Part shown: piece by piece, positions 5,938 through 50,635 of the stretch
Position numbering within the stretch: position 1 is the first letter of the stretch
Layout of the letters: the number at the start of each line of letters is the position of its first letter
Origin: Adineta vaga
Taxonomy: Eukaryota > Animalia > Rotifera
Direction of reading: 5' to 3'
Assembly: GCA_021613535.1 (NCBI GenBank)
Contig: CP075496.1
Span: 9,052,001 to 9,116,000 of the forward strand
Length of the DNA stretch: 64,000 nt
The notes under the pieces: generated by a model
Databases searched by the model: none
Told to the model about the DNA's origin: nothing
Seen by the model: only the letters and a program-made list of their open reading frames with translations
Program-made: the position numbers and the translations under genes

Positions 5938-7323
5938 TTATCGATATTTATGCATCATCTTCTGTTCTACTAATCGTTGATAATCTTGTTCTCTTAATCC
6001 TAATAGAATATTAACTGATTCATCTCGTTTGTGTGAATCCATCATAGCAAAATATCTAGGATATCGTTGTTTTGTTGGTCCACTATAAATTGGATAATTA
6101 TCACCACCACCACCGAAGTTTCCTCCTAACATATTCACTTTTCTCCATGATGCACAATGAAAATCACGATTGATCAGATCAGCATCGACTTGATTCTTTC
6201 GGATGTTCCCGTCATCGCTGGATAGATAAGCATTGTAATGTTTTAATGATTTATCTGTTTGTTTTGTATACATTTCATGAATTAATTGAGCTAAGGACGA
6301 AAGAGTCGGTGGTTCGTCGGCTGTCCATTTCCCATAAAGCCAAAAAGGAAATGAACCAAAATAATGAAGTACAGCTGGTGAACAAGAGGAAACAAACCGT
6401 GATCGTCCATTGAATGATTGAAGAATTCTAATTTTTTTCTCATCAATAAATGATGTTTGTGTTGCATGAGCAATAACTAAAATCATATGTGCATAGAGTG
6501 CATCATATGTACTGATATAGTCAACAGTTGCTGAAAGATGTTTTATAGCTTCTGCTTTGATATTTTTCAATTCATTTGCAGAAAAATAATAAACTCGAGT
6601 AATAACACGTTGCTGTTGTTGAGTTGGAGTAAATATTGATTCTGATGGTAGAGGAATGTCTCGACTAAAAACACAATCAGATGGACGAATAATTGTTGTA
6701 TTCAATTGTTTTTCTTCTGGCGAGAAAAGAACGAACAATTTGTCCATCATTGGAAGATTTTTAGGCATTGTTCCACCAGCTGCCCAACTAGTAATAAAAT
6801 GTGCTGTACTTTGTGCATCCATTAAACAATGAAACGCTGATATTGTTATCATAACAGAATCACATTGAAGACGTGTTATCTGTATAGAGATCATGGGTCC
6901 TGTCCAATCATTTGCTACTGGAACATTCAAATCTGATGCATTGATATGATCATAATCAAATTCTTCATCATCGGATGTTCGTTGAATAAAATAATCTAGT
7001 GTTTGATCTGAACATTGTGCTTCTGTGAAAAGAACACCTTCATTATTCAGATGAATCGTAGCATTTCCATTCACATCTTCTGTTAGACGGCCAGCTAGAA
7101 TTGGAAAATAATTAAGTGTATCCGATAATGTTGATTGCAGTTGTTTCATTGGCATAAATGCTTCTTTGGATAATTTTAATTTATTTTCATAAATCCAAAT
7201 CATACTAATTGGAGTAGATTTTGTATTAGATTCAACAGCCATACAAGTAATCGTTTGAGCATCATCTTTTGATGGATTAGAACATTTAATGAAGATAGAT
7301 GGATCTTTGTTGATGGTACACAT
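5938..7323 (-). CDS. BAHD/transferase-family CoA-dependent acyltransferase, intronless
   Basis: LSDTLNYFPILAGRL, GVLFTEA, QITRLQCD, catalytic HxxxD (HCLMD), SW and DFGWG-like GNFGGG. First ATG 7323. Confidence 0.9.
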   Translation of the reverse strand: MCTINKDPSIFIKCSNPSKDDAQTITCMAVESNTKSTPISMIWIYENKLKLSKEAFMPMKQLQSTLSDTLNYFPILAGRLTEDVNGNATIHLNNEGVLFTEAQCSDQTLDYFIQRTSDDEEFDYDHINASDLNVPVANDWTGPMISIQITRLQCDSVMITISAFHCLMDAQSTAHFITSWAAGGTMPKNLPMMDKLFVLFSPEEKQLNTTIIRPSDCVFSRDIPLPSESIFTPTQQQQRVITRVYYFSANELKNIKAEAIKHLSATVDYISTYDALYAHMILVIAHATQTSFIDEKKIRILQSFNGRSRFVSSCSPAVLHYFGSFPFWLYGKWTADEPPTLSSLAQLIHEMYTKQTDKSLKHYNAYLSSDDGNIRKNQVDADLINRDFHCASWRKVNMLGGNFGGGGDNYPIYSGPTKQRYPRYFAMMDSHKRDESVNILLGLREQDYQRLVEQKMMHKYR

Positions 7324-8072
7324 ATTCTTGATTGATACAGCCAATAAATAAAGTGAGTTTGATATGTGTCAGTTGTGAATAAAGACCTTGTTATTTATAT
7401 TTGCCTAGATTAGATGTCGAAATTACATCGTGTTCTGATGAAATAACATATAGAACAAAAAAGTGACAAATAGTGCAAAGAAAGCAAGATTTGCAGATCA
7501 AAAGAGCAAACGATAGTAATATATGTGGATATAATCTATTCTATTCGTTCGTCATAATTTAAAAACAGAATAATAAAATCTTTATTTATTAAATTTTTTT
7601 ATACTACGGTACTATTGAATTATTGAAATAAAATTGCTCATAGAGATATTATTTCACTTTGCGATACCGATATTTCAGTCAGATCATAGGATCATATCAA
7701 GAATCTCTTTCTTCTTTCTATGATTCATCGAATATTCCTACGAGCACATAGATGTCACATGTATGCAATGAATATATCATCCGAATAGTATATACGGGGA
7801 TGAGAGTATGTCATATGTTATAAGTACTGATATTGAACATGACACATATTCCAACAGGATTAAAAAAGAGTCAAATAGATTTGGCTATTATAGAATATCT
7901 TTCAGTTGTCTCTGTCTCAATGGTAATTATTATGCTTTAGTTTATAGTGGATCGATCAAAGACTATGATTGAATGCTTATTTTATATATTCACTTTGATC
8001 TCATATATAAATGAAACTATACAATTAATCAATGAAAATAAGACAGATGACAACATGAAATTTAAATTAACT

Positions 8073-14959: not shown

Positions 14960-15445
14960 TTATTTGAGAAGTATCTGTAACACCTTTCTAAAAAATCCTT
15001 CTGCGTGCTTGTAAATTCCGGGTGTGGTTTCTTCTCGTGGTCCAGCAACATTTAATATCTCAATTTTGTTTGCTATAATCCATTCACACACTTGATTTTC
15101 TTTAGAACTCTCATTCTTTTCATCTAAATTAACAATAAACAAAGGTTTATGATGTTTCTCAGCCATTCTTGTCGTTAATTTTGTTCCAGCACTCATTGTA
15201 TTTTCATTTCCACGAAAGATAATTAGAGTTCCATCTGAATCACGAACATTCATTTCAGTTCGTTGTGGATATCGATTCGTTGAAGTTTCTGCGAGATTTG
15301 CATACTTAACTGGATCAATTGTTCCATCTTCTGCTATTCTACCGCGTGGACACCAACCACCATACGGAAAATTCATTTCAATAGCCACATCTAAAGCAGA
15401 TCGATCAACACCCGTTTGTCCACCGCTCACAACCTTTTTCAGCAT
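14960..15445 (-). CDS. 'Putative molybdenum carrier' / YpsA-like SLOG-superfamily protein, intronless
   Basis: VVSGGQTGVDRSALD, GGWCPRGR.AEDG, RTEMNVRDSDGTL, GTKLT and LNVAGPRE are the signature of the bacterial MoCo_carrier family. First ATG 15445. Confidence 0.92.
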   Translation of the reverse strand: MLKKVVSGGQTGVDRSALDVAIEMNFPYGGWCPRGRIAEDGTIDPVKYANLAETSTNRYPQRTEMNVRDSDGTLIIFRGNENTMSAGTKLTTRMAEKHHKPLFIVNLDEKNESSKENQVCEWIIANKIEILNVAGPREETTPGIYKHAEGFFRKVLQILLK

Positions 15446-16081
15446 GTATCTAAAAGGCAATTAAACTCGTGATTTTCATGATATAGCGAATATTTTGACT
15501 ACTGAATTCTGTATTGCTAAACAATTTTCGTGTTTCCTTTTAAGAACAACGGGTGATGTGTATAAAAAATGTTACGAAAAAAACGAAATGATCAATGCAA
15601 TGCAATTGGCTGCCTCGTGTCAATATAAGTTTTCAATGAATAGAAAATGACACTTTACCTTCTAAAGATGGCGTACTTCTGTGTATCGTCTCGACGTTTA
15701 ACTTGTCTGAAAATCGGTAAAAGAGTGTCAATAATTTCTCCAAATAGAATATAGAGAGAAAACAAATTTTTATCTAAATTTTGATAATGCACTATTAACA
15801 ATACATTGACAAGTGTTGTATTCACAAGTGGTATGGCGAAAATGATAGATATCTGTAAGAAAGAGGATCTCGTATAACACTATGCAAACATGGTGTATCA
15901 TTCGATGCTTCATAAAATATATAAAATATCTTATGATTGTTTCTTTCTATAACAAATTCGCGATATTGTTGTTATCAATTATATGATTTGAACTCTGTCA
16001 ATGTTTTCAAATCTTCATTTATTCATATTTTACGATTGCACTACATATGTTTCAATAAAATGTAAAGCTCGACAATGGTTA

Positions 16082-17664: not shown

Positions 17665-17985
17665 TCATTGGATGTTTACCTGATGATTTTTAATATTCTT
17701 ATATGTTTGTTCTAGTCCACAATAACGACAAAGGACGTTTAAATTTTCTAGACTACAATTTTTTTGTTGTTTGAAAGCTTCTACGGCATTTTTAATTGAA
17801 TCGTTTGATATCAATTGATCTTTAGTTAATGTTTTTCTACTTATTGGACTTGTACCATGTTGTATAATCCAATTAGTGATAGCCTTCCTTTCGTATACAT
17901 ATTCATCATTAGCAATAACTGGATCATCGAATAATTCTAATGTTAATGGACAAATTAAATATTTTTCTTTGTCAACTGATGACAT
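17665..17985 (-). CDS. U-box domain plus start of a TRAF-type zinc finger (probably exon 1 of the TM-NHL gene)
   Basis: LICPLTLELFDDPV...YERKAITNWI....TSPISRKTL...L.SN..IK is a U-box. CRYC...H followed by splice donor at 17679. Confidence 0.85.
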   Translation of the reverse strand: MSSVDKEKYLICPLTLELFDDPVIANDEYVYERKAITNWIIQHGTSPISRKTLTKDQLISNDSIKNAVEAFKQQKNCSLENLNVLCRYCGLEQTYKNIKNHQVNIQ

Positions 17986-18921
17986 ATTTTTAATATTTTT
18001 ATTGTAAATGAAAACGAGAAAAATATAAGCAAAAGATAAGTGAAAACATAATTCTTATCTTTTATATATTGCATCGTCCATTCAGTCCTATTTTTTACTG
18101 TTGTCACTGTTGATGACATTTTATCATTCTGCAGCAACTATCTGCACAGTACCTGTTTTTTGTTTTAATATAGAAATGTGAAAAAGAGATCAACGTAAAC
18201 TTTTATTCGATTCGCCCGTTATTGTTTTTTCATTGAAGATGCGAACAACAAACAATGTCAATGAATAACTATCATCAAAAATAAAGATTTACTTTTATAG
18301 TATTAGTTTACAATATTAGTTGTACATCGTTTATTATTCTGATGTGTTTATCTATAACAACTATATATCAACAATACGTTGAGCATTTTTAGCAAGCTTC
18401 ATTCAATAGTGAAAAAAACTTCTTCTTTCAAAGCCTATACGATGGGAATGACATATAATGTAAATATTTCAGTTTTATTTCTGTACTGATATGTTATGTT
18501 GTCTTGTAGTGCTAGTTTTTTATTACGTATTATCTTAGCGAATATCGTTCGTCAAAGAAACGCAACCGATGAAAATGCTATTGAATACATCAGTATTATA
18601 ATAGATGGCGCATAATAAATTTGCATAATACATAAGTTCTTCTGTCGATAAGTTACAGTTGCGAATACAATAGAAATAAACACGATTAGCAAAATAAGAA
18701 GATTACCCCGAAGATTGCACAATCAATAAATAAAATTTGTAACAACGATTCTCTATGACGCATGCGTATGACTTACGAGTTGTGCAATACTCTATATTGA
18801 AAAGAGTATCAACCAATGATAATATTAATACAATCATATAATATATAAATAAATATTTTCAACATTAAAGGAACAATCTTTTTAACGAGTATATCGATCG
18901 AATTGGACCATTTCTTCTAGT

Positions 18922-20930: not shown

Positions 20931-21614
20931 GATTTTAAAAAGAAAATATCTAAACAAATTTTAATAAGTATAAAAGCAAGAGTTTTTATAGGGCACGGAT
21001 GAAAAACATTGCAAGAATAACTACTCATGAATATAAATCTAGGACACTTTTTTTCTGTTCTTTTATATTCCACTCTTCATTACCTTCACAATTTTGTCTG
21101 TACTCATAGTTTCTAAGCAACATAATTGATTTTCATCGATGCTTGAAAGATCATAACATTTGTTAGATAATTATTGTTATATATTAATTAATTTAATCAT
21201 TCGCATATTTTATACAGCAGCGACAACAACACATATTCAATCGTAGAGGAGAAATGAGCTATTTCTGACTTGCTAAAATTATATTTCTTTCGTTGTCGTC
21301 AATAGTTTTATTGACAAGAGAAATAGGAAAAAAATTGAATAACAAGATTTTATTCAAGTACATTTTGTTTGATTTCTTTTTTTCGCAATCGGAAGAAATG
21401 AATGACGTATTTACTGGAAATGGCACATATACGTCATTGCATAAAAACAAAACAATAAATATAATATTTTCTGCTCCCTCTTGAAATACACTTTGTCATG
21501 GTTGATTTATTTTATTTCTTCGTCACTCAGTCTATATAATAGATACAATCTCATAATATTTTGTGTTTTTTTTAACGTACATATACGTCAACTAAGAATA
21601 TAATATTATTACCT

Positions 21615-21944
21615 ATGACTTCAGAAATAATACGTGGTACAATTACATCTAAAGATTCGTCGCATGTATTTGAAGGAGGTGAAACACTTGATGTATCCGT
21701 TGTTGATGCTTCACGTATGGATGCACCAAGTATCACATTGGGAGAAACAAAAATTACATTGAAACAAGGTCAAACATTTCCAATTGAATTCGAATTTTCT
21801 TATGATAAATCTCGAGTTGGACAAGGTTACGGTGGCGCATCAATGCAATCAAGAATTATAGACAAAAAGTACAAATTGATCTATGTTAACGATACTCGTA
21901 CACCACTCGTTGAAAATGTGGCAATCAATGTCGTTAAATCATAA
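21615..21944 (+). CDS. ybaY: YbaY/YscW-like (pilotin-fold) protein lacking the lipoprotein signal
   Basis: IRGTIT...L.VSVVDASRMDAPS..LG......FPIEF.FSYD.......S..SRI....KL.YVNDT matches the bacterial YbaY family pattern. Confidence 0.8.
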   Translation: MTSEIIRGTITSKDSSHVFEGGETLDVSVVDASRMDAPSITLGETKITLKQGQTFPIEFEFSYDKSRVGQGYGGASMQSRIIDKKYKLIYVNDTRTPLVENVAINVVKS

Positions 21945-25623: not shown

Positions 25624-26490
25624 CTATCGATGTAAATGTAAAATTTTTGTTAATTTCCTTCGAAGTTCAGATAATGATAGAATACAAATAAATGGAAAGA
25701 ATAATGTCATGAAGAAATGAAGGTACATTGCAAATTGTCGAAAATCGACAATTTTCTCTAATGGATAGCCACATATGAGCATAAAATCTACCAAAGCAAA
25801 TGGAAAAAGAAATATTAGATAGAGAAGTGATATGGATAATAACTGAATAGTCATTTTTCGTTGTTTTCGCCATTGTATGTGTTGTTGCATACGATATTTT
25901 TGCCATAGAACACGTATGAGTAATGCCATGCTAAAGAAGACAACTATAAAAATGGGCAAAACTTCATTAATTATAGTATCCAATGTTGAGAATATCAAGT
26001 TATCAAAAAGACAAGAAGCAATACATGTAAGATAGAAATAATCGCGTACATTTTGACAAGGTGGTAGGAAATAGACGATCGTATAGATAATAGAACAGTA
26101 GAGAAGTAAACAAATCGATGGAAGATAATGAATGAAAAATCGTTTTTTCTTTGTAGATATCCATCCATTATGAAAAATAAGAATATGTCGTTCAATAGTT
26201 GCCCAAGCAAAAAGAATTGTTTGTATTACATATAAACACCAATTAATAAATCCCCAAACTTGACAAAATGTGTATGATCTTTCCCATATACCATCACGAT
26301 GATAGTAATACAATGAAAATGGATAATCAGTTACTTCAGATATAAACCAATGAGTAGAATAATGATAATTACATGATTGTTAAGAGCATGTCGCATTGCT
26401 CGATCAAATAGAAGATGATAAAGAGCGAATAATGAACAAACAATCGATGGGAAAAGAAGAATAAGATAGGACCAAAATTTGACTGAATTC
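25624..26490 (-). pseudogene. 7TM GPCR with frameshift at ~26345 and damaged start (pseudogene or consensus error)
   Basis: Upstream frame reads SVKFWSYLILLFPSIVCSLFALYHLLFDRAMRHALNNHVII, then shifts to ...EVTDYPFSLYYY. WATIERHILIFH and KQRKMTIQLLSIS motifs. Confidence 0.75.
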
Positions 26491-26777
26491 TATATCATGA
26501 TTTTGTCATAATTTACTACAGACACTGTTTTAAGAATGAGATCAGTATTGTAATATTTCTATCTATAAATCTGTTGTCTCAAAGTTAATTGAAAAAGTAA
26601 GACATACTATTCTATTTATTCCATAGAGAAGAAGAATCTTTTCTTTTTATATAGATAAAACATCATCTCATAATGAAAAAGAAGACCTTCGGTACTGATA
26701 TTTATTTTTAGATTTTTATAAATGCCATTCGTTTTTATTAACAAAAAAGTTTTCTGCTGTCGCCTTTTTTTTACAAG

Positions 26778-28079
26778 TTAATCAAACAAACCAAAACCCA
26801 TATCGTCACCATCACATTCCTCTTTCAAATGAGCTTGATGATCGTATCCTTGTGCGATCAGTTTTGGATTGATAGTTGTATCTTTAAATTTTTTCTGCAT
26901 ATGTTCTGCCAATTGGAGTAATAATGAGACCATTCCTTTTTCGTCATCATATTTTTCTACATCTTTAAGTAATGTAATTTGTTTCTCAACAAGATCAATA
27001 GCATCTTGTCTACATCCATCTCTTACTAATTGAGCAATTTGTTTATCCATTTCAGCTACTTGTTGGGATGCATACATAATTTTAACGCGAGGATCGATAT
27101 CCGCAACAAGTGTTTCGTCTTCGACAAATCTTAATGATAATGTATTTTTAACACTTGTCGGTTCGCTAAGAAGATCATCTGGTTGATTGTATCGTAATTC
27201 GTAGGTCAATGTTTCAATATCAGTATTCTCTGTACCGGATATTGTAAATTCACAAAGAATCGATCGTAGGTTATTCACATAAAGATCACCAATACTTGCA
27301 CCAGCAATAAGATCATCATGTCCCCAGATTTTAGTCACAATTGCTCCATTTTTACCGCGAATCAAAAGACGAACTCGAGAAGCACATACACCAAATACAC
27401 AAACTAATGCTTTAGTAACAAGTAATTCGATGACATCAGGTGAAGCAAGAAAATAGAATCTTGCTCCACCAGAATCCGCAATACCCTTCATAATTTCACT
27501 AACAAAATCAGCACCAATACCAAATGAATCCGTTATAATACCTTTCGTATTGTATCCAGCAACGAGATTAGTTAATTCTGCGCATGTTTTCATTCCAACA
27601 TTGGCCTGTCCGTCAGAAAAGAGAAACATTCGACGTGCATATCCATCATATACATATTTCTCTAGAAGATCAGCTCCTGTTTGAAGAGCACCAGAAATAT
27701 TTGTTGAACCAGCTGTGTCAATGTTATCAACTAAAGAATACAGATATTGACGAGAAGATGCACGTGCATTTTCAAAGATGATGGTTACATCAGTATCATA
27801 GGCTACGAGATGAACAATATCATCATCATGAAGAAGATTGAGAACAGAAATAACAGCTTTTTTAGCAAATGTTAATTTATTATTTGATTCCATTGAACCA
27901 CTACGATCAAGAATAAGTACTAAATTGAGTGGTGTTCGTTTGTTTGTTTCTCCATTGCCTTTTGTTTCAATATCGAAACGAACTTTTTTTGTATTTAAAA
28001 CACCAGCAAGAGCATTTGGATTGTCTGGAATACATCGGAGTTGTACTGTAGCTAATTTAGTTTCGGTAGTCATTATCAT
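26778..28079 (-). CDS. VWA (MIDAS) domain protein, YfbK/'Ca-activated chloride channel homolog'-like, ending in ribosomal P-protein motif DDMGFGLFD
   Basis: PLNLVLILDRSGSM, GSTN, FLFSDGQANVG, FGIGADF; helical C-terminal domain; last residues EECDGDDMGFGLFD*. Intronless; first ATG 28079. Confidence 0.9.
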   Translation of the reverse strand: MIMTTETKLATVQLRCIPDNPNALAGVLNTKKVRFDIETKGNGETNKRTPLNLVLILDRSGSMESNNKLTFAKKAVISVLNLLHDDDIVHLVAYDTDVTIIFENARASSRQYLYSLVDNIDTAGSTNISGALQTGADLLEKYVYDGYARRMFLFSDGQANVGMKTCAELTNLVAGYNTKGIITDSFGIGADFVSEIMKGIADSGGARFYFLASPDVIELLVTKALVCVFGVCASRVRLLIRGKNGAIVTKIWGHDDLIAGASIGDLYVNNLRSILCEFTISGTENTDIETLTYELRYNQPDDLLSEPTSVKNTLSLRFVEDETLVADIDPRVKIMYASQQVAEMDKQIAQLVRDGCRQDAIDLVEKQITLLKDVEKYDDEKGMVSLLLQLAEHMQKKFKDTTINPKLIAQGYDHQAHLKEECDGDDMGFGLFD

Positions 28080-28348
28080 AGTTTGTATAGGCTGCAATTA
28101 TTCATAGTTATAAAAAAATAGATCAAAATACTAGGTATTAATCTTACTATCGTAACAAAAAAGGGAATTGTTATTGTTCGATGGTGAAATAAAACATACA
28201 GTGAGTGTAGAAAGAAAATACATGGTCGTTTTAAATGCGGAACACCTTTGGCGAGAACGTTGTGCAATACTCATCCTGACTCATGTTATTTCGAAATCTA
28301 AAGAAATTACAGATTATACGAGGTAGTATAAACTATAAAGTAATTTGA

Positions 28349-29010
28349 TTATGACGTCCACGATAAGTATGTCAATAGTGTTGTTTGATATCGTCTGATT
28401 ACATTTCGAAGCTCTTCTTTGTATGTTTTTGATGGTAATACAAAGACTAGAAATGTAAATATCGAGACAAGAAATAATTCTGAATCATCCATCGATTTTA
28501 TGTAACTTGAAATAAACGATAGAATCAAACGTGGTATTGTAAGAATGACTATGTTCACGAAGTTCTTTGAGAATTAGCTATCGGTACTGTTGCTTCTGTT
28601 GAATAGTTGTTCGTGGTCGAGCCATCAATACAATAATAGTAAGCGCCGATATAATATTGATCTCAAATGGTACATTTGAATAAAAATATATTGACATATG
28701 AATTCAATATTTTAAATACAGATGGATAAATAACAACATACCAGATTCGTTTTATTCATCATCAATCAGACGACAATAGAATGGATAGTGAAGAGTTGTT
28801 AGAAGGATGGCAACACAGACGAAGACAATACAATATTTAGCTATTTGTTTACTTTTTGATTTATTGAATTTGATTCCTTGAATAACAGTAATCGTACGTT
28901 CAATAGCAACATAACCATGCATCCAATGATCGATCTATAAACCTACTCGTAAGAAGAAATGAATTGTTGTACATTGAGAACGGAGAAAAACGCGAGAAGT
29001 AACATAGTTT
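28349..29010 (-). pseudogene. Degenerate C-terminal 7TM region of a GPCR
   Basis: Fragments AIERTITVIQGIKFNKSKSKQIAKY, HYPFYCRLIDDE and VILTIPRLILSFISS...FLVFVLPSKTYKEEL in shifting frames with stops. Confidence 0.65.
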
Positions 29011-30331
29011 ATTTGCACCACTCTCACTTGATCGTGCGCTGTTGAACAGAAGAATGACATTAAACTACAATAGAAATTTGTTAATAGAAAATAATATATT
29101 TATATATAGATCATAGTTATATCAAGCACACGGTCATCTAAAAATCTGAGGGACGTGTAGTGAAATAAGCACATAGCTCGAACGGTGCAAAACAGTACGA
29201 TCATCGTCGAAAAACTAAGAGATACGTTATATGCTGGCCATAGTGCTCTCTGGAAATTCCATACCATCAATTTCTAACATAATCATTATGGTAAAGAGGT
29301 CACGTTTCCTTGTGTATATATCCACAGATCCCAAATCCTATTCATACTTTTCGATTTGTTTTTGTTAATACTTTCTCAATCATATCACAAACAGTTAACA
29401 TGAGGCAGGTTAAAAATCCAGAAGAATTTTCAACTCTGATTTATCTATGCTTAATAAACTTCAAGGATTGTATGTATCATTATAAAAGGCACAGTTGCTA
29501 TCGAAGCTTTTTCACTTTTTATTGCCATAATAATTGCATATTTTCTTGTCGGAAGACACATATGACGCATCTTTGATATCTAATACGAAATATATCAAAT
29601 ACAGTATTACTATCAATATAAAGTACTAGTTGAATTAATACGATACAAAGCAGTCTCTCAATCAGTATGTTGTTTAGTAAAAAATACTGTTGGACGAAGA
29701 TAATATCAGTTCATAAGAGACAAGATATGTCATGGTTATTTGAAATGACTGAAAATACTTGATATTATGGGTCAATATGTAAAAATGTCGTACTATAATT
29801 AAATCTCTTTCAGAATCTAAATTAACATGATAGAGTTTGATAGATATTGATCTAATAAGAAAATACAATAAAAAATAGGGAGCTATTCGAGAAGATGTGA
29901 AGAAGAAAAGGAAAACTAACATAAACTTTAGCGTTGATCGATGTAAAATAATGATATGATTGACCATGCTATGTTGTAAATGTCCTAACACAATGTAAAG
30001 CAAAAATATAATTATGAAAAGATTCACGCCTTCTTTTTTTTCAAATTAATTTATTGTTTAATATAATTTGATACTATATGATCATCAAGAAACTTCATTA
30101 TTTAACAGTTCATATGATGCTACTTTTGTATTATATTGAAACATATTTGATCACAAAACATAAATATAATGTCGAACATAATATTATTCATTTATTGATA
30201 TTTAGTTTTCGTTTAGCAGTTCTTATTGTAAATGTTACACTTGTATAAGATATGACTAATCTTCTTGAATATAAAATCCTTGTAGAATTACAAAGATCAA
30301 TCCTATTTTGTTTCTTATCTATCTCTTTCAG

Positions 30332-30763
30332 ATGTATATGTATTTTCGACAATATATCTTTTTGCAATTGTTTCTTATATATTATATAGCTGGTGGATTA
30401 ACTCAAACAATAACATTTGGAACATCGGTGTCTAAATGGAAAGACAGCACATTGAAATGTAAAACTTTTGAATATCGTGTTGATGATTATCATCTTCGAA
30501 TCAAATTTCTTGAAGAAAACAAATTATTTTGGGAATATCTATCAGCTCCTTATGGACTTACAGGCAAAAATGCTACGGAACAAATTGAACGTACACAAAT
30601 TCGTACTGATATGATAATTCTTCGTTGGAAAGAAGCAGATGGTATCAATGTAATCGATGTTTTCGATTTGGATAACATGGTTATGTATGCTAATTTTGTC
30701 ACTATTGATGGAGAACGAATTTCTGCTCAAGGAAACTTGATGGAAGTGAAAAGTGATTGCTAA
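30332..30763 (+). CDS. Secreted MoaF-N/phenolic-acid-decarboxylase-like lipocalin beta-barrel protein
   Basis: Signal peptide, then KTFEY....Y...I.F.EENKL.WE.......G....E......IR.D.I...WKEADG..V..V.DL.....ANF, the pattern of bacterial MoaF N-terminal-like proteins. Confidence 0.65.
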   Translation: MYMYFRQYIFLQLFLIYYIAGGLTQTITFGTSVSKWKDSTLKCKTFEYRVDDYHLRIKFLEENKLFWEYLSAPYGLTGKNATEQIERTQIRTDMIILRWKEADGINVIDVFDLDNMVMYANFVTIDGERISAQGNLMEVKSDC

Positions 30764-31766: not shown

Positions 31767-32917
31767 TTATGAATCAATATGTACTTGTTTGCTTTGAATA
31801 GATCGAAAATAATCTATATATCCAGTTGAATTTTTATCAACGTATAACTAAAAGTTTGATAATGAAGTAAAATAATCAGAGATCTGAAAATATAAGTATT
31901 AATATTCATATAAGATTATAAATGAAAAAAGATTATGTTTCCTTCTGACTCTACCTGCATAGTTGATAGTTATATTACCGACTTTCCCATGATAATCATG
32001 TATGAGGAAATTAACTAATATGATTTAAATCTGTATTTAGTGATGGCGAATAAAAGTGCTAGTTGTGGAAAGAATGTTGATATCATTAGTTTTAAACTCA
32101 GCGCTTTCATAAACAATTCCTTCGAGATTTTTTTTATCATAATCCATCATCAATGTTTTTCTAGTTTTTTTACATGTTCTGACGTTTTAGATCTTTTATA
32201 TAAAGCAATCTAATAAATTGAGCGTATAAAATGATTTATTATACACAATCTTAACCACGAACTGGAGGTATGAATCGATGACATTATTTTATGTGAAAAA
32301 TATAGTCAGAGTAATCAACAAATTGTTTTTATAAAATAAGAAGTATAAGTTGCTTTGGACGTTACTTACATAGAAAATGTCATGTCTATCTTTTGTATGA
32401 AAAATGAGACGCAATTTGTATAGATTTAGTTATTAGACGTAAACGAAAAGAAAGATTTTGCAGAACACGTAAATAAAATATAATGAGAAAATGACATGTT
32501 TTCATCGACGAGAGAAATTCTGTTTTTCAAAGCAGTCGAGTATAAATTTAGAATTGAAAATATGATCGTATTTCTTTTCTTTCCTTTCACACATGATACC
32601 ACCATACAAACTCAAAACTTGGTCATATGAACCAGTTGTTTTTTTGTTAATTATGTTAATAGAGTTGTTTCTCGAAAAGAAAAAGAAAAGTAAATAAATA
32701 ATTAACTACATATACCACCTTGTAAAGATTAGAAACATGAAGATATTGTAAAAAAATGAAATATTCACTATATTGACTTTTCTTTATTCTAAAAGCTTTC
32801 ATATACGTTATCTATAACATTATCAAATTATAGCAACTGATTAAAATGTTGTTTTTATTTAAAAAAAAGACCTTTTTTTCATTTATCTAAATTCTTGTTG
32901 CATATTCTTCGATTCAT

Positions 32918-35815
32918 ATGTTGTTGCTTCCAGTTGTTTTACTATTTTTGGTACAGGAAACAAATAGTATTCCTAGCATAATTCGTCCACATCATGTTCG
33001 CATAGAACATATGGACGAAGTTACACATTCTGATATTGTTATCGAGACACACACGCCACATTTTTCATGGCAATTAGCCAACGAATACTCTCAGGATGGT
33101 CAATTAGTTCGTGAAGTACAACAGATAGGTTATCATATTCGAGTACATAATCGTGTTACTAGTGAATTGATTTGGGATACTGATTACGTGTCATCTTCAT
33201 CATCTCTTCATATTCGATATGACGGTAGCCAATTTACTTCTGATACACGCTATAGTGTCACCATAAAATATTACACGACAGAACGTGAAAGTCAATGGTA
33301 TACAACATACTTTCGTACAGCACTTTTCTCGCTAACAGATTGGAAAGGTCAATGGATTGGTAGTAATTATTTCAATATGAATCAATTACGTACTGTTGTA
33401 AATCTTAAACCAATAACAATTCAATCTGCAACAGTTTTTATTAGTGGCGTTGGTTTTTATCAACTATATATCGAAGGTCAATTGATTGATCCATCTCGAC
33501 GTTTAGATGTTGGTTGGACAACATATCAACAACGGACACTCTATACTTCATATGATTTAACTAATATAATAAATACTACTAGTGGACGAATGGGTATTGG
33601 TATCGTATTAGGACAAGGCTGGTACAATCAACAACAATGGGCTATTTCACTCAATCCACATATTACACTTGCTGAACAATATGGTCCACCGCGTGCATTA
33701 TTACAACTAAATATTAATTATTCTGATGGTACGAATCAATCGATTGTTACAGATTCTTCTTGGTTGGGTAGAGAAGGTGAACATCGATTTGATTCTGTGT
33801 ACATGGGTACAACAATAGATCTTCGTGCAACACTCTCATGTTGGTCATGTGCTAATTTTAGTAATTTCTATTTACCATGGTTAAATGCTTCTGTATTACC
33901 ATCACCAGTTAATTTCTCAGCAGGAGGTGAATTTTCATTACAAATTATGGATCCTATTCGTATTGGTCCAGATGCACTTCATATTGCAACTTCAGGTCAT
34001 TTCGATCTAATGGAAGGTGTTCAAGGCGCTAGTCTAACGAATAGTAGCGGTGTGCTTAAACCTATTTCTCAAGATATGATTAATGGACAAGTTTTTGATC
34101 TTGGTCAAAATTTTGCTGGCTGGTGTAAAATATCATCATTGAATGCAAGTAAATCTACGATTATTCAAATGCGTTATGCAGAATTGCGATATTCACGTGG
34201 TATAAATGGTATTGATTTTGCTGGAATCTATTATGAAAATTTAGATAGTATTTCTGTAATGGATACAGTCATCTTGAATGGAACAGGTAATGAAACATTT
34301 GAACCTCTATTTACTTCACATGGTTTTCGTTATTTATTGGTTAATGGCTATAATAAAATTACAAAAAATGATGTTGAATGTTACAATGCACATAGTGAAA
34401 CGACATTGATTGGTAATTTTACGAGTAGTAGTATTGTTTTAAATCAAATTCAACATAATATTCTTTGGTCACAATTGAGTAATTCAATGTCCTTACCGAT
34501 GGGTTGTCCTCAACGTAACGATCGAACCGGATGGTTAGGTGATGCAGGACTTAGTGTCGATGCTGCATTATATAATTTTGATTATATCAATTTCTATTTG
34601 AATTTTTTAACTATGATCGAAGATAATCAAACACCTGAAGGTGCTGTAAGTGATACTGTACCATTTATGACTGGTTTTCTACCTGCAGATCCTAATTGGG
34701 GTACAGCATATGTAACAATTACTTGGTGTTTGTATGAACATACCGGTGACATAAGTATTCTTGAAAAATACTACATTGGTATTCAAAAATGGATTGATTT
34801 TTCAACTGAAGGATATAAGAAAACGGGTTTAGCAAATATGTACTTTCACTTTGGAGATTGGGTTCCAGTACAAAAAATGAGTAATAATTCTTTAGTATCA
34901 TCTTATGCTTTTCTTCGTAATGTGTACACATTTGTTAACATGAGTCAATTATTGAACCGCACTACGAATGTTCAAAAATATTCTGAATTCTATCAGCAGT
35001 TAACTCAAGAATGGCATCGTGTCTTTTATAATGCAACTATCAATGGATATGCAGATGGAAGTCAATCAGAGAATATATTATCATTAGCTTTACATAATGT
35101 TGTACCAAATTCTATTCGTACTATTGTACTTAAATCACTAATCGATAATCTCATCAAGACAGGTTGTTTTACAGGAGGAATTATTAGTGTTGCAGCTTTG
35201 TATCCACTTCTTTCGACAGAAGGATATCATGATCTTGCATTGAAACTCGCACTTTCTACTTCTTATCCATCTTATGGTTATATGTTTAATAATCAAATAC
35301 AAAATGCAACAACAACATGGGAGCAATGGAATAGTTTACCGAATGGAGCAAGATCATCTTTAAATCATCATATGTTTAATAGTATTGGAGCATGGTTCTA
35401 TCGTTATCTAGCAGGAATTCAATTGAATGCATTGAATACAATTAGTATTCATCCACGTATGTCCTATAGAGTTGATCTCTTAAACTATATCGAAGCAGAA
35501 GTCGTTACAATAAAAGGATCAGTTCAAGTAAAATGGACGCGAATTACAAATGATTCAGTATTATTAGCAGTTATTGTACCAAACAATGTGAATGCAGAAG
35601 TTTTCTTTGATCCATTAATTACCAACGGACGATGTCTAAAATTGATATGTGATGACAAAATTATTTGGACAAGAGAAAGTCAAAATAAACAAACGAATTG
35701 GTCAAAAGATGTAATAGGCATTAGTGATATTACTGAACATCCTGTAAAAGGTATTCTATCAGTGAGAGTTGTATCTGGTGAATCACGTTCATGGCATATT
35801 GGAGATAAATTATAA
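32918..35815 (+). CDS. Alpha-L-rhamnosidase (GH78), secreted, intronless
   Basis: Signal peptide; PHFSW, SGVGFYQLYI.G, YDLT, VFDLGQNFAGW, HGFRY, CPQR...GWLGD, FGDW, ATTTWEQW, SLNHHMF. A probable 1-nt deletion at ~35782 changes the last residues. Confidence 0.93.
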   Translation: MLLLPVVLLFLVQETNSIPSIIRPHHVRIEHMDEVTHSDIVIETHTPHFSWQLANEYSQDGQLVREVQQIGYHIRVHNRVTSELIWDTDYVSSSSSLHIRYDGSQFTSDTRYSVTIKYYTTERESQWYTTYFRTALFSLTDWKGQWIGSNYFNMNQLRTVVNLKPITIQSATVFISGVGFYQLYIEGQLIDPSRRLDVGWTTYQQRTLYTSYDLTNIINTTSGRMGIGIVLGQGWYNQQQWAISLNPHITLAEQYGPPRALLQLNINYSDGTNQSIVTDSSWLGREGEHRFDSVYMGTTIDLRATLSCWSCANFSNFYLPWLNASVLPSPVNFSAGGEFSLQIMDPIRIGPDALHIATSGHFDLMEGVQGASLTNSSGVLKPISQDMINGQVFDLGQNFAGWCKISSLNASKSTIIQMRYAELRYSRGINGIDFAGIYYENLDSISVMDTVILNGTGNETFEPLFTSHGFRYLLVNGYNKITKNDVECYNAHSETTLIGNFTSSSIVLNQIQHNILWSQLSNSMSLPMGCPQRNDRTGWLGDAGLSVDAALYNFDYINFYLNFLTMIEDNQTPEGAVSDTVPFMTGFLPADPNWGTAYVTITWCLYEHTGDISILEKYYIGIQKWIDFSTEGYKKTGLANMYFHFGDWVPVQKMSNNSLVSSYAFLRNVYTFVNMSQLLNRTTNVQKYSEFYQQLTQEWHRVFYNATINGYADGSQSENILSLALHNVVPNSIRTIVLKSLIDNLIKTGCFTGGIISVAALYPLLSTEGYHDLALKLALSTSYPSYGYMFNNQIQNATTTWEQWNSLPNGARSSLNHHMFNSIGAWFYRYLAGIQLNALNTISIHPRMSYRVDLLNYIEAEVVTIKGSVQVKWTRITNDSVLLAVIVPNNVNAEVFFDPLITNGRCLKLICDDKIIWTRESQNKQTNWSKDVIGISDITEHPVKGILSVRVVSGESRSWHIGDKL

Positions 35816-42573: not shown

Positions 42574-44304
42574 ATGTCGTCTTCCAAACTGGATCTTATT
42601 TCAAAAATTCTTACAATTGCTGATTCCTATAGTGATAATAATGCTGGAATTCAAATCGATCTCAAAACATTTACAGCATTATCGGCGCTTGGCATGTCTG
42701 GTAAATTTGAATATATATATAAAAATAGCGTTCTATTCTGAAAATCTGTATTTTTTTCATACAGTCATCACTGCTTTCGTACCAGCTAAGACTTCTAAAG
42801 TAGATACAGTGCAAACAATACCTATGGAATTTATTTCGTCACAATACCATACACTTGTTGGTAACACGAAATTTGATGCTTTAAAGATCGGTATAGAATC
42901 CTGTCTTTTGTAATATAGAATAGATTTGATATTTCATTTAAATTAGGTACTCTACATTCATCATCGCTTATCAACTGCCTTGTATCGCTTCTTACTGACA
43001 CGCAAATTCCTGTTGTTGTCTTTGATCCAATCATAGTTACTGCACATTTATCAGCGAGCAGTCGTGATATTCTACGTAATCAGTTTCTGCCTATGCTTAC
43101 ATTGATAACTCCAACGATTGACGAAGCAGCAATTTTACTCAATCGTAATATTGTTTCGTTTGAGGATATGAAATCTGCTGCACAAGAATTACATAATCTA
43201 GGTACAAAATATGTTTTGATTAGAGGTAATCCCTCATTAAAACCGATACAATTGAAGAGAATTTTATTATGAATGTACTCTTTGATGGTGTGAATTTTAT
43301 TCTGTTGAAAAGTTTTCAATTCTCCGACGATTCTGTATACAGCATTCGATGTATATTTTCTGCAGCAATTACTGCATATTTAGCTCGTGGTATCCATATC
43401 AAACAGGCTGTGGAAGATGCTATCACATACACTGGTACTGTTCTACAGCATTCGTCGAGTTTCATTGGCAATAGTGATCAATTGAAACACATTGTCTCAG
43501 TGATTTCAACTGATAATAATGTAGTGCAAGGAAAAGATCGGCTCGAGATTGAAAAACCACATTTATCTTTACAACAACCATCGTTCGTGCAACTACTAAA
43601 AACGGAATGTGCACGAGAATGGGTAGGTGATTGTTTCTTTGGAGAAATTGATTATAGATCTTAATATTGTTCTATCTCAGTTCGACTATACTCATCATCA
43701 ATTTATACTAGAACTAGCCAGCGGCACATTGTCACAAGAGAGTTTCAAACATTATCTTATTCAAGATTACATTTTTTTAACGCATTTCGCTCGATGCTAT
43801 GCTTTAGCTGCATACAAATCGAATAGTATGGCAGAAATTTTACTTGCTGCAAAGAATGCATGTTCTATTGGTCATGAAAGTGAACTTCACGTAAAATATT
43901 GTGCTGAATGGGGCATTGATGCGACGAGTTTACATTCATTCAGAGAAGCACGTGCAAATCTTGCTTATACACGATACACTCTCGATATTGGTATGACAGG
44001 TGATCTACTTGACCTTTATGTAGCCCTTTCTGCTTGTCTCTTGGGCTATGGTGAAATTGGGTTGCGACTATTTGAAGATCCAAAAACAAATCATAATTCA
44101 TCATATTGGAAATGGATATTAAGTTATGCTGCTGATGATTATCAGCAAGGATGCCGAGAAGGTGAACAAATGATTGAACAATTAGTTAATGATTATGGTA
44201 TTTGGCATGCTCCTAATCGAATTAAAAAACTCGTCAATATCTTCAAAACTGCTACACTTCTCGAAATTGAATTTTGGAACATGGGCTTGAATATTGAATG
44301 GTAA
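42574..44304 (+). CDS. THI20: THI20/THI21-like fusion: HMP/HMP-P kinase (ThiD-like, degenerate) + TenA thiaminase II; 3 introns, frameshift at ~43240
   Basis: ILTIADS....AGIQIDLKTF, VITA, ALKIG, VVFDP, LITPT..EA, VLIRG (ThiD). HQFILELASGTL...F.HYLIQDYIFL.HFAR, AYTRY, ACLLGYGEIG, YWKWI..Y, LEIEFW (TenA). Introns 42701-42764, 42891-42946, 43623-43680. Confidence 0.9.
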
Positions 44305-49995: not shown

Positions 49996-50635
49996 TTAAG
50001 CATTTTGAAAACGTGCAAGAGGAAAATTGGGTCCAGGACATGTACGACCAACATTGAATTGATCATGAGTATAGATATTAATGCCTCGATAACGACGTTT
50101 AATATCGCCTACTAAGCGAACACCGGCAGCAAGTTGAACTTCGGGCATAATATTATTATTTTGTGTATTACGAACAAATTCAATTCCTATACACCATAAA
50201 TTTGGATTTGGACGACCATAAAATGCTGAATTCGTTGTTACTACACCTAAAATACAAAGACTTCTATTTGTTTCACTCAAGAATTGATATTTACCGTTAT
50301 GCCATGCCGTATCATCTTCACTAACCATTTGTACGACTGTTCCATCTTGTTCGACAACATAATGTGCAGATACTTTACTAGATGGATTTTGAAACCATGA
50401 AACTGTACCACCACCAGCAGTACCATGAAGTGTCAAACCTTTTGAATACATTTGAAAAAACAAAATTATATTTAAGAAAAAGAAACACACGAATGAATTA
50501 TTCACATGTAATAGCTTGTCCTGAACGACCACGATTAAAATGTGGAGATGATACTTGTTTAGCTGGAAGATAATCGATTGTCCACGAATGGATATAGCCG
50601 ACAGCAATACACAACAATAATGCAATAGATCTCAT
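49996..50635 (-). CDS. Secreted N-acetylmuramoyl-L-alanine amidase (Amidase_2, AmpD/T7-lysozyme type), 3 exons
   Basis: Exons 50635-50506, 50438-50295 and 50246-49996 splice to MRSIALLLCIAVG...SPHFNRGR...CLTLHGTAG...VSAHYVV...GTVVQMVSEDDTAWHNG...NLWCIGIEF...YTHD....TCPG, with His/His/Cys Zn ligands and catalytic Glu. Confidence 0.92.

Follow-up and report, generated by a model that had tools for sequence, protein, structure and literature searches.

The tails of the ribosomal P-stalk bind translational GTPases, ABCE1, GCN2 and several ribosome-inactivating proteins. Why, then, should a VWA protein of a bdelloid rotifer end in the same peptide? The gene in question lies at 26778..28079 on the minus strand of a 64,000-nt stretch of the Adineta vaga genome (contig CP075496.1, positions 9,052,001 to 9,116,000; hereafter the window).

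The gene and the protein it encodes

Eight of 24 listed read runs were compared with the locus; they are called DNA-like or RNA-like by program guess, none of the runs being on record as RNA. The coding region (26778..28079 (-), 433 aa, stop codon TAA) is free of introns, and M3 is the residue aligned with the start of most orthologs. The initial annotation had called the gene intronless, which stands for the coding region but not for the 5′ UTR, where a 56-nt GT-AG intron (28092..28147 (-)) was revealed by a joint in run X14 and a matching loose end in run X15. The exon upstream of this intron extends to at least 28177. The 3′ UTR (26688..26777 (-)) contains AATAAA at 26706-26701 and a poly(A) site at 26688, placed from the sequence and a loose end in RNA-like run X20. 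The X20 contig spans 27606-26688 and terminates in 21 untemplated A residues, 13 nt past AATAAA, bearing out the annotated 3′ end. The contig of DNA-like run X5 spans 26172-29400 with no joints inside the gene, and the chimeric join with a P-protein sequence that had been raised as an objection was not found. Contigs of the other seven runs were mostly limited to the gene; six of them reach into or past the tail, and that of run X18, which has a different organism code, ends before it. Ten sites in the ORF vary among the runs, five synonymous and five residue-changing, and none lies in the tail. The flanks of the gene contain a short repeat that many contigs match, and run X5 has insertions there of 1 nt and 29 nt (26163-26214, 26342 and 28544). 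The gene is real and transcribed, and is no chimera with a P gene.

A VWA domain occupies residues 52-214 (27438..27926 (-); Pfam VWA, E 2.6e-15). Its MIDAS is complete, in agreement with the initial annotation, D58, S60, S62, T126 and D156 all being present, and it is intact in all 34 bdelloid and all 16 other tail-bearing rows. An AlphaFold2 model built on an 82-row alignment had a mean pLDDT of 90, with the tail poorly placed (approximately 50-60); a predicted complex of the tail with its own body and Mg scored 0.01. In the model a strand-rich part of a beta-sandwich (residues 231-319; 27123..27389 (-)), probably completed by the N-terminal strands 2-41, is followed by a C-terminal four-helix bundle (residues 330-421; 26817..27092 (-)), which is also seen in the structure matches. 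The best structural match was ArnB (8s05; Z 32.8, rmsd 4.1, 377 residues aligned), over residues 6-426, followed by Catenulispora Caci_2163 (4fx5; Z 32.5), vWA2 (5a8j; Z 28.9) and then ITIH1 and Sec23/24. Foldseek matched the ArnB/vWA2/YfbK-like fold with an E value of 3.7e-23; a whole-protein query of the ESM Atlas gave generic VWA clusters and a tail query gave nothing. The protein thus shares with ArnB/vWA2, Caci_2163 and YfbK-type proteins a VWA domain with an intact MIDAS, a beta-sandwich and, at the C terminus, a bundle of helices. Unlike ArnB, to which it is 16% identical, it has no known FHA partner or phospho-Thr switch, and it ends in a stalk mimic. The C-terminal bundle of ArnB is a partner-docking, phosphorylated end (PMC6509490; PMC12852372), and the ArnB-like architecture is also found in YfbK, Sec23/24 and the WAV3 RING ligases (PMC12852372).

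No VIT domain was matched by Pfam, 51 residues lying ahead of the VWA domain, and Pfam likewise detected no RING, B-box, P1 or P0 domain. A phmmer comparison with tail-less P0/P1/P2 gave no match. The P1 N-terminal dimerisation segment and the uL10 anchor also had no Pfam match, and the model is fully occupied by the ArnB-like fold. The protein is therefore an ArnB/YfbK-type VWA protein, and not a P protein, a VIT-VWA protein or an E3. A crude hydropathy scan gave no signal peptide and no clear membrane helix; the sole hydrophobic stretch, from residue 216, forms a helix and a strand of the modelled fold, from which we infer a cytosolic location.

The window contains no paralog of the gene. 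It does contain several genes of non-animal appearance: a transferase (5941-7368), a cpYpsA SLOG gene (14963-15460), YscW-like (21576-21941) and MoaF-like (30275-30763) genes, an alpha-L-rhamnosidase (32891-35815), a TENA/THI gene (43627-44301) and an Amidase_2 gene (49999-50631). A U-box exon lies at 17668-18054. No functional link to the gene was seen for its neighbours (GPCRs, MoaF-like, rhamnosidase).

The ORF ends EECDGDDMGFGLFD-TAA. The stalk-like tail, KEECDGDDMGFGLFD (residues 419-433; 26781..26825 (-)), is a free C-terminus, modelled with low confidence, and its last nine residues, DDMGFGLFD, are encoded at 26807-26781 (-) directly before the TAA, exactly as first reported. These nine residues are identical to the end of ribosomal P0/P1/P2 (SDDDMGFGLFD), with which the rotifer protein also shares the free end and the preceding acidic run. 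Unlike the P proteins, it presents the tail on a VWA scaffold, without a stalk anchor or the CK2 serine, and as one tail rather than five. The earlier judgement that such an ending is unlikely by chance was upheld: given the composition of the family, the probability that any one C-terminus would carry these nine residues is approximately 1e-11, or 6e-7 over 50,000 genes. A PDB search with the last 30 residues returned 17 rows, all P0, P1 or P2, with weak E values of 0.19-1.3.

The conserved serine of the P tail is constantly phosphorylated (PMC11624264). At the corresponding position −11, a CK2-phosphorylated serine in true P proteins, the A. vaga tail has aspartate; D or E occurs there in all 36 bdelloid tails and in 18 of 20 other tails, and serine in five of six true P proteins, although the residues around it are acidic in any case and an alternative alignment places Cys against the Ser with a one-residue insertion. 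None of 30 bdelloid tails has Ser or Thr at positions −14 to −8. An acidic residue at −11 would be in keeping with a tail that copies the stalk in its working, phosphorylated form (PMC11624264). The tail is probably a working stalk mimic of some kind.

Distribution of the tail in rotifers and distant relatives

A homologue search was used for the bdelloid family (best 120 of 142 matches, plus the query). The nearest named protein among the matches listed was P0002 of Adineta ricciae, with 79% identity. A tree was built from the 102 rows of 380-500 aa with the last 25 residues removed, 19 rows being excluded (other lengths, and P0104). Among these matches, 30 tail-bearing rows and two with acidic, shorter ends formed one clade (SH-aLRT 97), placed inside paralogs whose ends read RQxSCE..YD; in a third group the end is KKC.D.KY..HY, and the outgroups end in basic helices. 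A more careful 37-row tree agreed, with a tail clade of 18 rows (support 95/96). The initial annotation had proposed conservation in orthologs as a check, and the tail is indeed kept: DMGFGLFD is exact in 19 of the 32 clade rows, 25 end MGFG[LFYM]FD and 28 fit FG[LFYM]F[DES], GFGLF being absent from two. Named carriers are Rotaria magnacalcarata, R. socialis, R. sordida, Rotaria sp. Silwood1 and sp. Silwood2, and Didymodactylos carnosus (MGGFGLFD). Over the 32 rows the mode had a frequency of 0.89 in the last eight columns, 0.88 in the VWA core and 0.79 in the helix bundle, which puts the tail level with the core, and the tail window ranked only 143 of 426 for conservation. In the sister paralogs (27 rows) the equivalent stretch is 53% identical.

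The motif is less regular within Adineta. P0002 reads EECDEADMGTHYLFD and then runs on for approximately 75 residues, which is either a gene-model error or a real loss, and different tails are found on the rows named as A. vaga and A. steineri. Several paralogs with differing tails occur in each rotifer species. Three close loci from a metagenome scan all ended before the tail.

The tails can be aligned residue by residue with those of the paralogs (CEYM against CEDM, MAFY against MGFG), and two proteins, P0029 and P0060, have the acidic run in front of an end of the old type, MALY/MAFY. Either placement of these two, as intermediates or as reversions, is compatible with the tree (AU 0.33). 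These observations suggest that the rotifer tail arose by stepwise point change, rather than by capture of part of a P gene. A bdelloid paralog outside the tail clade, P0070, ends EEFGLYD; joining it to the clade was rejected (AU 0.006), and it is a possible third approach to the motif. The nearest named non-bdelloid relatives are amoebozoan (P0108, P0113 and P0122; Stenamoeba, Paradermamoeba) and no other animal occurs among the named rows, so the rotifer family may have been acquired horizontally.

When 1.84 billion representatives were searched with a profile, 150 proteins were listed, of which 13 end in a strict P-stalk tail, and a search with the alignment of those 13 added six carriers among the best 120 of 240 matches, giving at least 19 outside the bdelloids. 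The named ones are Nematostelium, Soliformovum, Peranema, Lacrimia and Borealophlyctis, which we take to be amoebae, euglenozoans and a chytrid. In body-only trees (147 rows, after 31 partial rows, one of them tail-bearing, had been dropped; and 42 rows) these carriers and the rotifer clade are widely separated, many basic-tailed rows lying between them. A single origin of the tail was rejected (p-AU 1.6e-5; 19 against 23 rows), in a test in which the group was defined by the tail, the trees had been viewed beforehand and long branches were present. Body identity was 33% among 15 non-bdelloid carriers and 29% between these and the rotifer carriers; the last eight residues are 87-88% identical, a figure that is partly circular because rows were picked for the tail. 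It therefore appears that the tail was gained at least twice in the family. The initial annotation had suspected a recurrent pairing of VWA and P-tail, and this is what was found, in protists and a chytrid, within the same ArnB-like family.

A tail-only search among proteins of 759-2165 aa, directed at the VIT-VWA/PARP4-like cases that the initial annotation had mentioned, yielded no candidate, and also missed P0197, P0223 and P0243, tail carriers within that range. The tail was at the end of none of 52 VWA ORFs in 48 viral loci, and of none of the VWA ORF ends listed for 80 metagenome loci, mostly bacterial-looking. Other C-terminal tags were seen among 215 non-bdelloid rows: CaaX-like tags in five (P0284, P0286, P0287, P0291, P0292) and xEL tags in nine (P0117, P0133, P0151, P0211, P0252, P0256, P0288, P0289, P0293). 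The family C-terminus reads as a swappable label, and the tails may accordingly be address labels. A PAFLRR motif lies near the C-terminus of two bacterial-looking VWA members of the same architecture (L050:5839-7194 (+) and P0361); it presumably resembles the FtsZ tail, and a PDB search with one PAFLRR tail gave no match.

RING, B-box and P-protein segments in protist relatives

RING and/or B-box matches were found in seven of the 19 non-bdelloid carriers, most of them below the Pfam cut-off and with four of the 19 proteins being fragments. Several carriers also have a segment resembling the P1 N-terminal dimerisation domain ahead of the VWA module. A profile of five such segments ranked an insect-like P1 first of 5,571 targets (E 1.3e-4) and recovered two held-out proteins, and a second five-segment profile matched yeast P1-alpha in the PDB (E 2e-6), along with two engineered repeat proteins that represent summed-score noise. 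The segments were chosen by eye, and the unbiased support is weaker: with phmmer, P0198 matched the same insect-like P1 with E 0.0037 among 266. The JGI annotation of P0269 is RPP1/RPP2 plus YegL. P0243 contains a degenerate P0 core, corresponding approximately to residues 84-250 of P0 (E 9e-10), with an RL10P_insert match. The stalk-anchoring domain is thus partly present in P0269, P0198 and P0243. Most of these fusions are single transcript or metagenome records, each of which could be misassembled; the order RING/B-box-P1-VWA-tail repeats across records.

The P1 and P0 pieces indicate that more of the stalk than its tail is imitated in these relatives and, taken with the tail itself, that the stalk has been imitated repeatedly. 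The nearest known parallels in architecture are the WAV3-type RING-VWA E3s of plants and fungi and Dictyostelium Vwa1 with FbxwD, in which an ArnB-like architecture is linked to ubiquitin ligases (PMC12852372, PMC10539598), and several of the tail-bearing protist proteins are RING/B-box-VWA proteins. The rotifer protein differs in having neither RING nor VIT. In the available portions of these two papers no stalk tail or P-protein piece is reported for WAV3 or Vwa1, and the strings 'ribosom' and 'gfglf' have no occurrence in PMC10539598. A literature search, confined to papers outside subscription, returned no description of a P-stalk tail on a VWA protein and no described non-ribosomal cellular protein built as an imitation of the stalk tail.

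Possible functions of the tail

It is quite possible, if short of probable, that the protein is a bait, catching proteins that bind the stalk and passing them to the ubiquitin machinery or to an alarm response. The VWA scaffold would display the copy of the stalk tail in the cytosol, and stalk-docking proteins would be captured there, these being probably of foreign origin, for instance toxins that inactivate ribosomes or factors made by parasites; this presupposes that the tail is accessible and binds in the full-length protein, and that the proteins it catches are hostile. The VWA module would then hand the captive over to ubiquitin-dependent destruction or an alarm response. In the protist form the ligase would be fused, and the RING-less rotifer form may use a separate ligase or partner through the MIDAS or the helix bundle. 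A ligase partner in trans is plausible because a cytoplasmic VIT-VWA protein of Dictyostelium is a non-substrate partner of a RING/F-box ligase (PMC10539598). A lone tail would be a poor sponge, the free 11-mer binding ricin A chain with a KD of 196 uM compared with low nM for ribosomes (PMC6162817), which favours a bait coupled to an output.

An E3 module joined to degenerate copies of a host target would also have the look of a bait protein. In plant NLR integrated decoys and TRIM-type restriction ligases, a signalling or ubiquitin module is joined to a degenerate version of what a pathogen targets. Here, unlike in those systems, the bait would be a ribosomal surface and the scaffold a VWA module, and the likeness is one of architecture, known from sequences. 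The bacterial vWA-MoxR conflict systems have a different arrangement (PMC8195603). In an infection RNA-seq study (PMC11258130), VWA terms had no occurrence in 14 of the 16 supplementary files.

Several points weigh against the bait reading. The protist fusions are a separately derived clade, and their logic may not carry over to the rotifer form. Resident translation factors, which far outnumber toxins, would also be expected to bind the tail. The A. ricciae, A. vaga and A. steineri rows, the two clade rows without GFGLF and the modest conservation rank of the tail likewise count against it, as do the lack of RING, B-box, P1 and P0 domains in the rotifer protein, the unrelated tags in the family and the weaker unbiased support for the P1-like segments.

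Tails on non-ribosomal proteins were also seen outside the VWA family. Two IMG/VR contigs of 70 and 187 kb carry the same gene (L001:2731-3027 (+); L002:3001-3297 (-)), for a protein of approximately 98 aa that ends in a P-stalk tail and has no Ribosomal_60s match; the contigs are giant-virus-like and the protein is a candidate viral stalk mimic. A Chlamydiia MAG contig (L083:809-1453 (+)) encodes a 214-aa protein with no Pfam match and a P-stalk tail at its end. Its neighbours on this single short contig are bacterial Fe-S and ferredoxin-like genes, and it is a candidate effector mimic. The stalk interface therefore looks contested. Of the seven tail matches from prokaryote genomes, the other six were eukaryotic P0/P1/P2 on tiny contigs (L084-L089), and were rejected as eukaryotic contamination of those assemblies.

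A true stalk mimic could instead serve the animal's own translation control, tethering, sequestering or marking eEF2, eEF1A, eIF5B, ABCE1 or GCN2 when the cell is stressed, for example by desiccation or radiation, with the protist P1 fusions riding ribosomes as quality-control ligases. This is the main alternative to the bait, and we regard it as rather unlikely. The physiological partners of the tail are indeed translation factors and GCN2, the motif recruiting eIF5B, eEF1A, eEF2 and ABCE1 (archaeal stalk) and the stalk activating GCN2 (PMC11624264); the protist forms could be held in the stalk by their P1-like dimerisation segments, and a phosphomimic-like residue at −11 would suit factor binding. 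ArnB, which gave the best structural match, acts as a switch linked to nutrients (PMC12852372). VWA genes, perhaps other than the present one, are among the radiation-induced genes of A. vaga (PMC10809525, PMC12220480); an HGT-flagged VWA gene that is up in the radiation response (PMC12220480), and that may likewise be another gene, would suit a stress role. Against this, the patchy spread, the repeated gain, the varied tails of the paralogs and the degenerate P0/P1 pieces would look more like conflict than housekeeping.

It is less probable still that the C-terminus is an acidic-hydrophobic ligand of a generic kind, for the protein's own MIDAS, a neighbouring copy or an unrelated partner, so that the likeness of the rotifer tail to the stalk would reflect convergence of chemistry and not of target. 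Sister paralogs already end M/L-x-F/L-Y-D, and the candidate intermediates P0029 and P0060, the separate FGLYD of P0070 and the other tags in the family are as this explanation would expect. Without stalk partners, however, it is hard to account for an exact match of eight to nine residues attained at least twice, or for the P1 and P0 domains joined to the tail in relatives. The monomer model left the tail without a defined placement.

A passive sponge, soaking up ribosome-inactivating toxins by competition alone, which is the plainest form of the decoy suggested in the initial annotation, has poor prospects. Free tail peptides do bind and inhibit ricin A chain in vitro, and they compete with ribosomes and block depurination, with IC50 values of 4.7 uM for yeast and 31 uM for rat ribosomes (PMC6162817). 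At the weak affinity of the free tail, however, a 1e4-fold excess would be needed (PMC6162817), each protein offers a single tail against five per ribosome, and the conserved MIDAS would be without a job. An assembly chimera, a pseudogene or chance is extremely unlikely, since the residue-changing half of the ORF variants is the one point found in its favour, whereas DNA-like and RNA-like contigs cross the gene, the tail recurs in orthologs of five named Rotaria species and Didymodactylos, and its chance occurrence is of the order given above.

Judged from the sequences, mimicry of the stalk on a known scaffold is real, selected and recurrent. Extending the bait reading to the whole family, we tentatively propose a eukaryote-wide, repeatedly evolved ribosome-decoy immunity, in which ArnB-like VWA modules dressed as the P-stalk would catch toxins or parasite proteins and destroy them or raise an alarm, the tail acting alone in rotifers and, in amoebae and euglenozoans, in company with pieces of P1 or P0 and a TRIM-like ligase; other branches may wear other host peptides. 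The family offers small, soluble, testable proteins, one of them from an animal that can be cultured, and a natural template for catching toxins that bind the stalk. Translation factors, the stress kinase GCN2 and several ribosome-inactivating toxins all land on the stalk tail. Its apparent attainment at least twice, with the coupling to P1, P0, RING and B-box segments in protists, points to a hitherto undescribed layer of control over translation or of defence of the ribosome.
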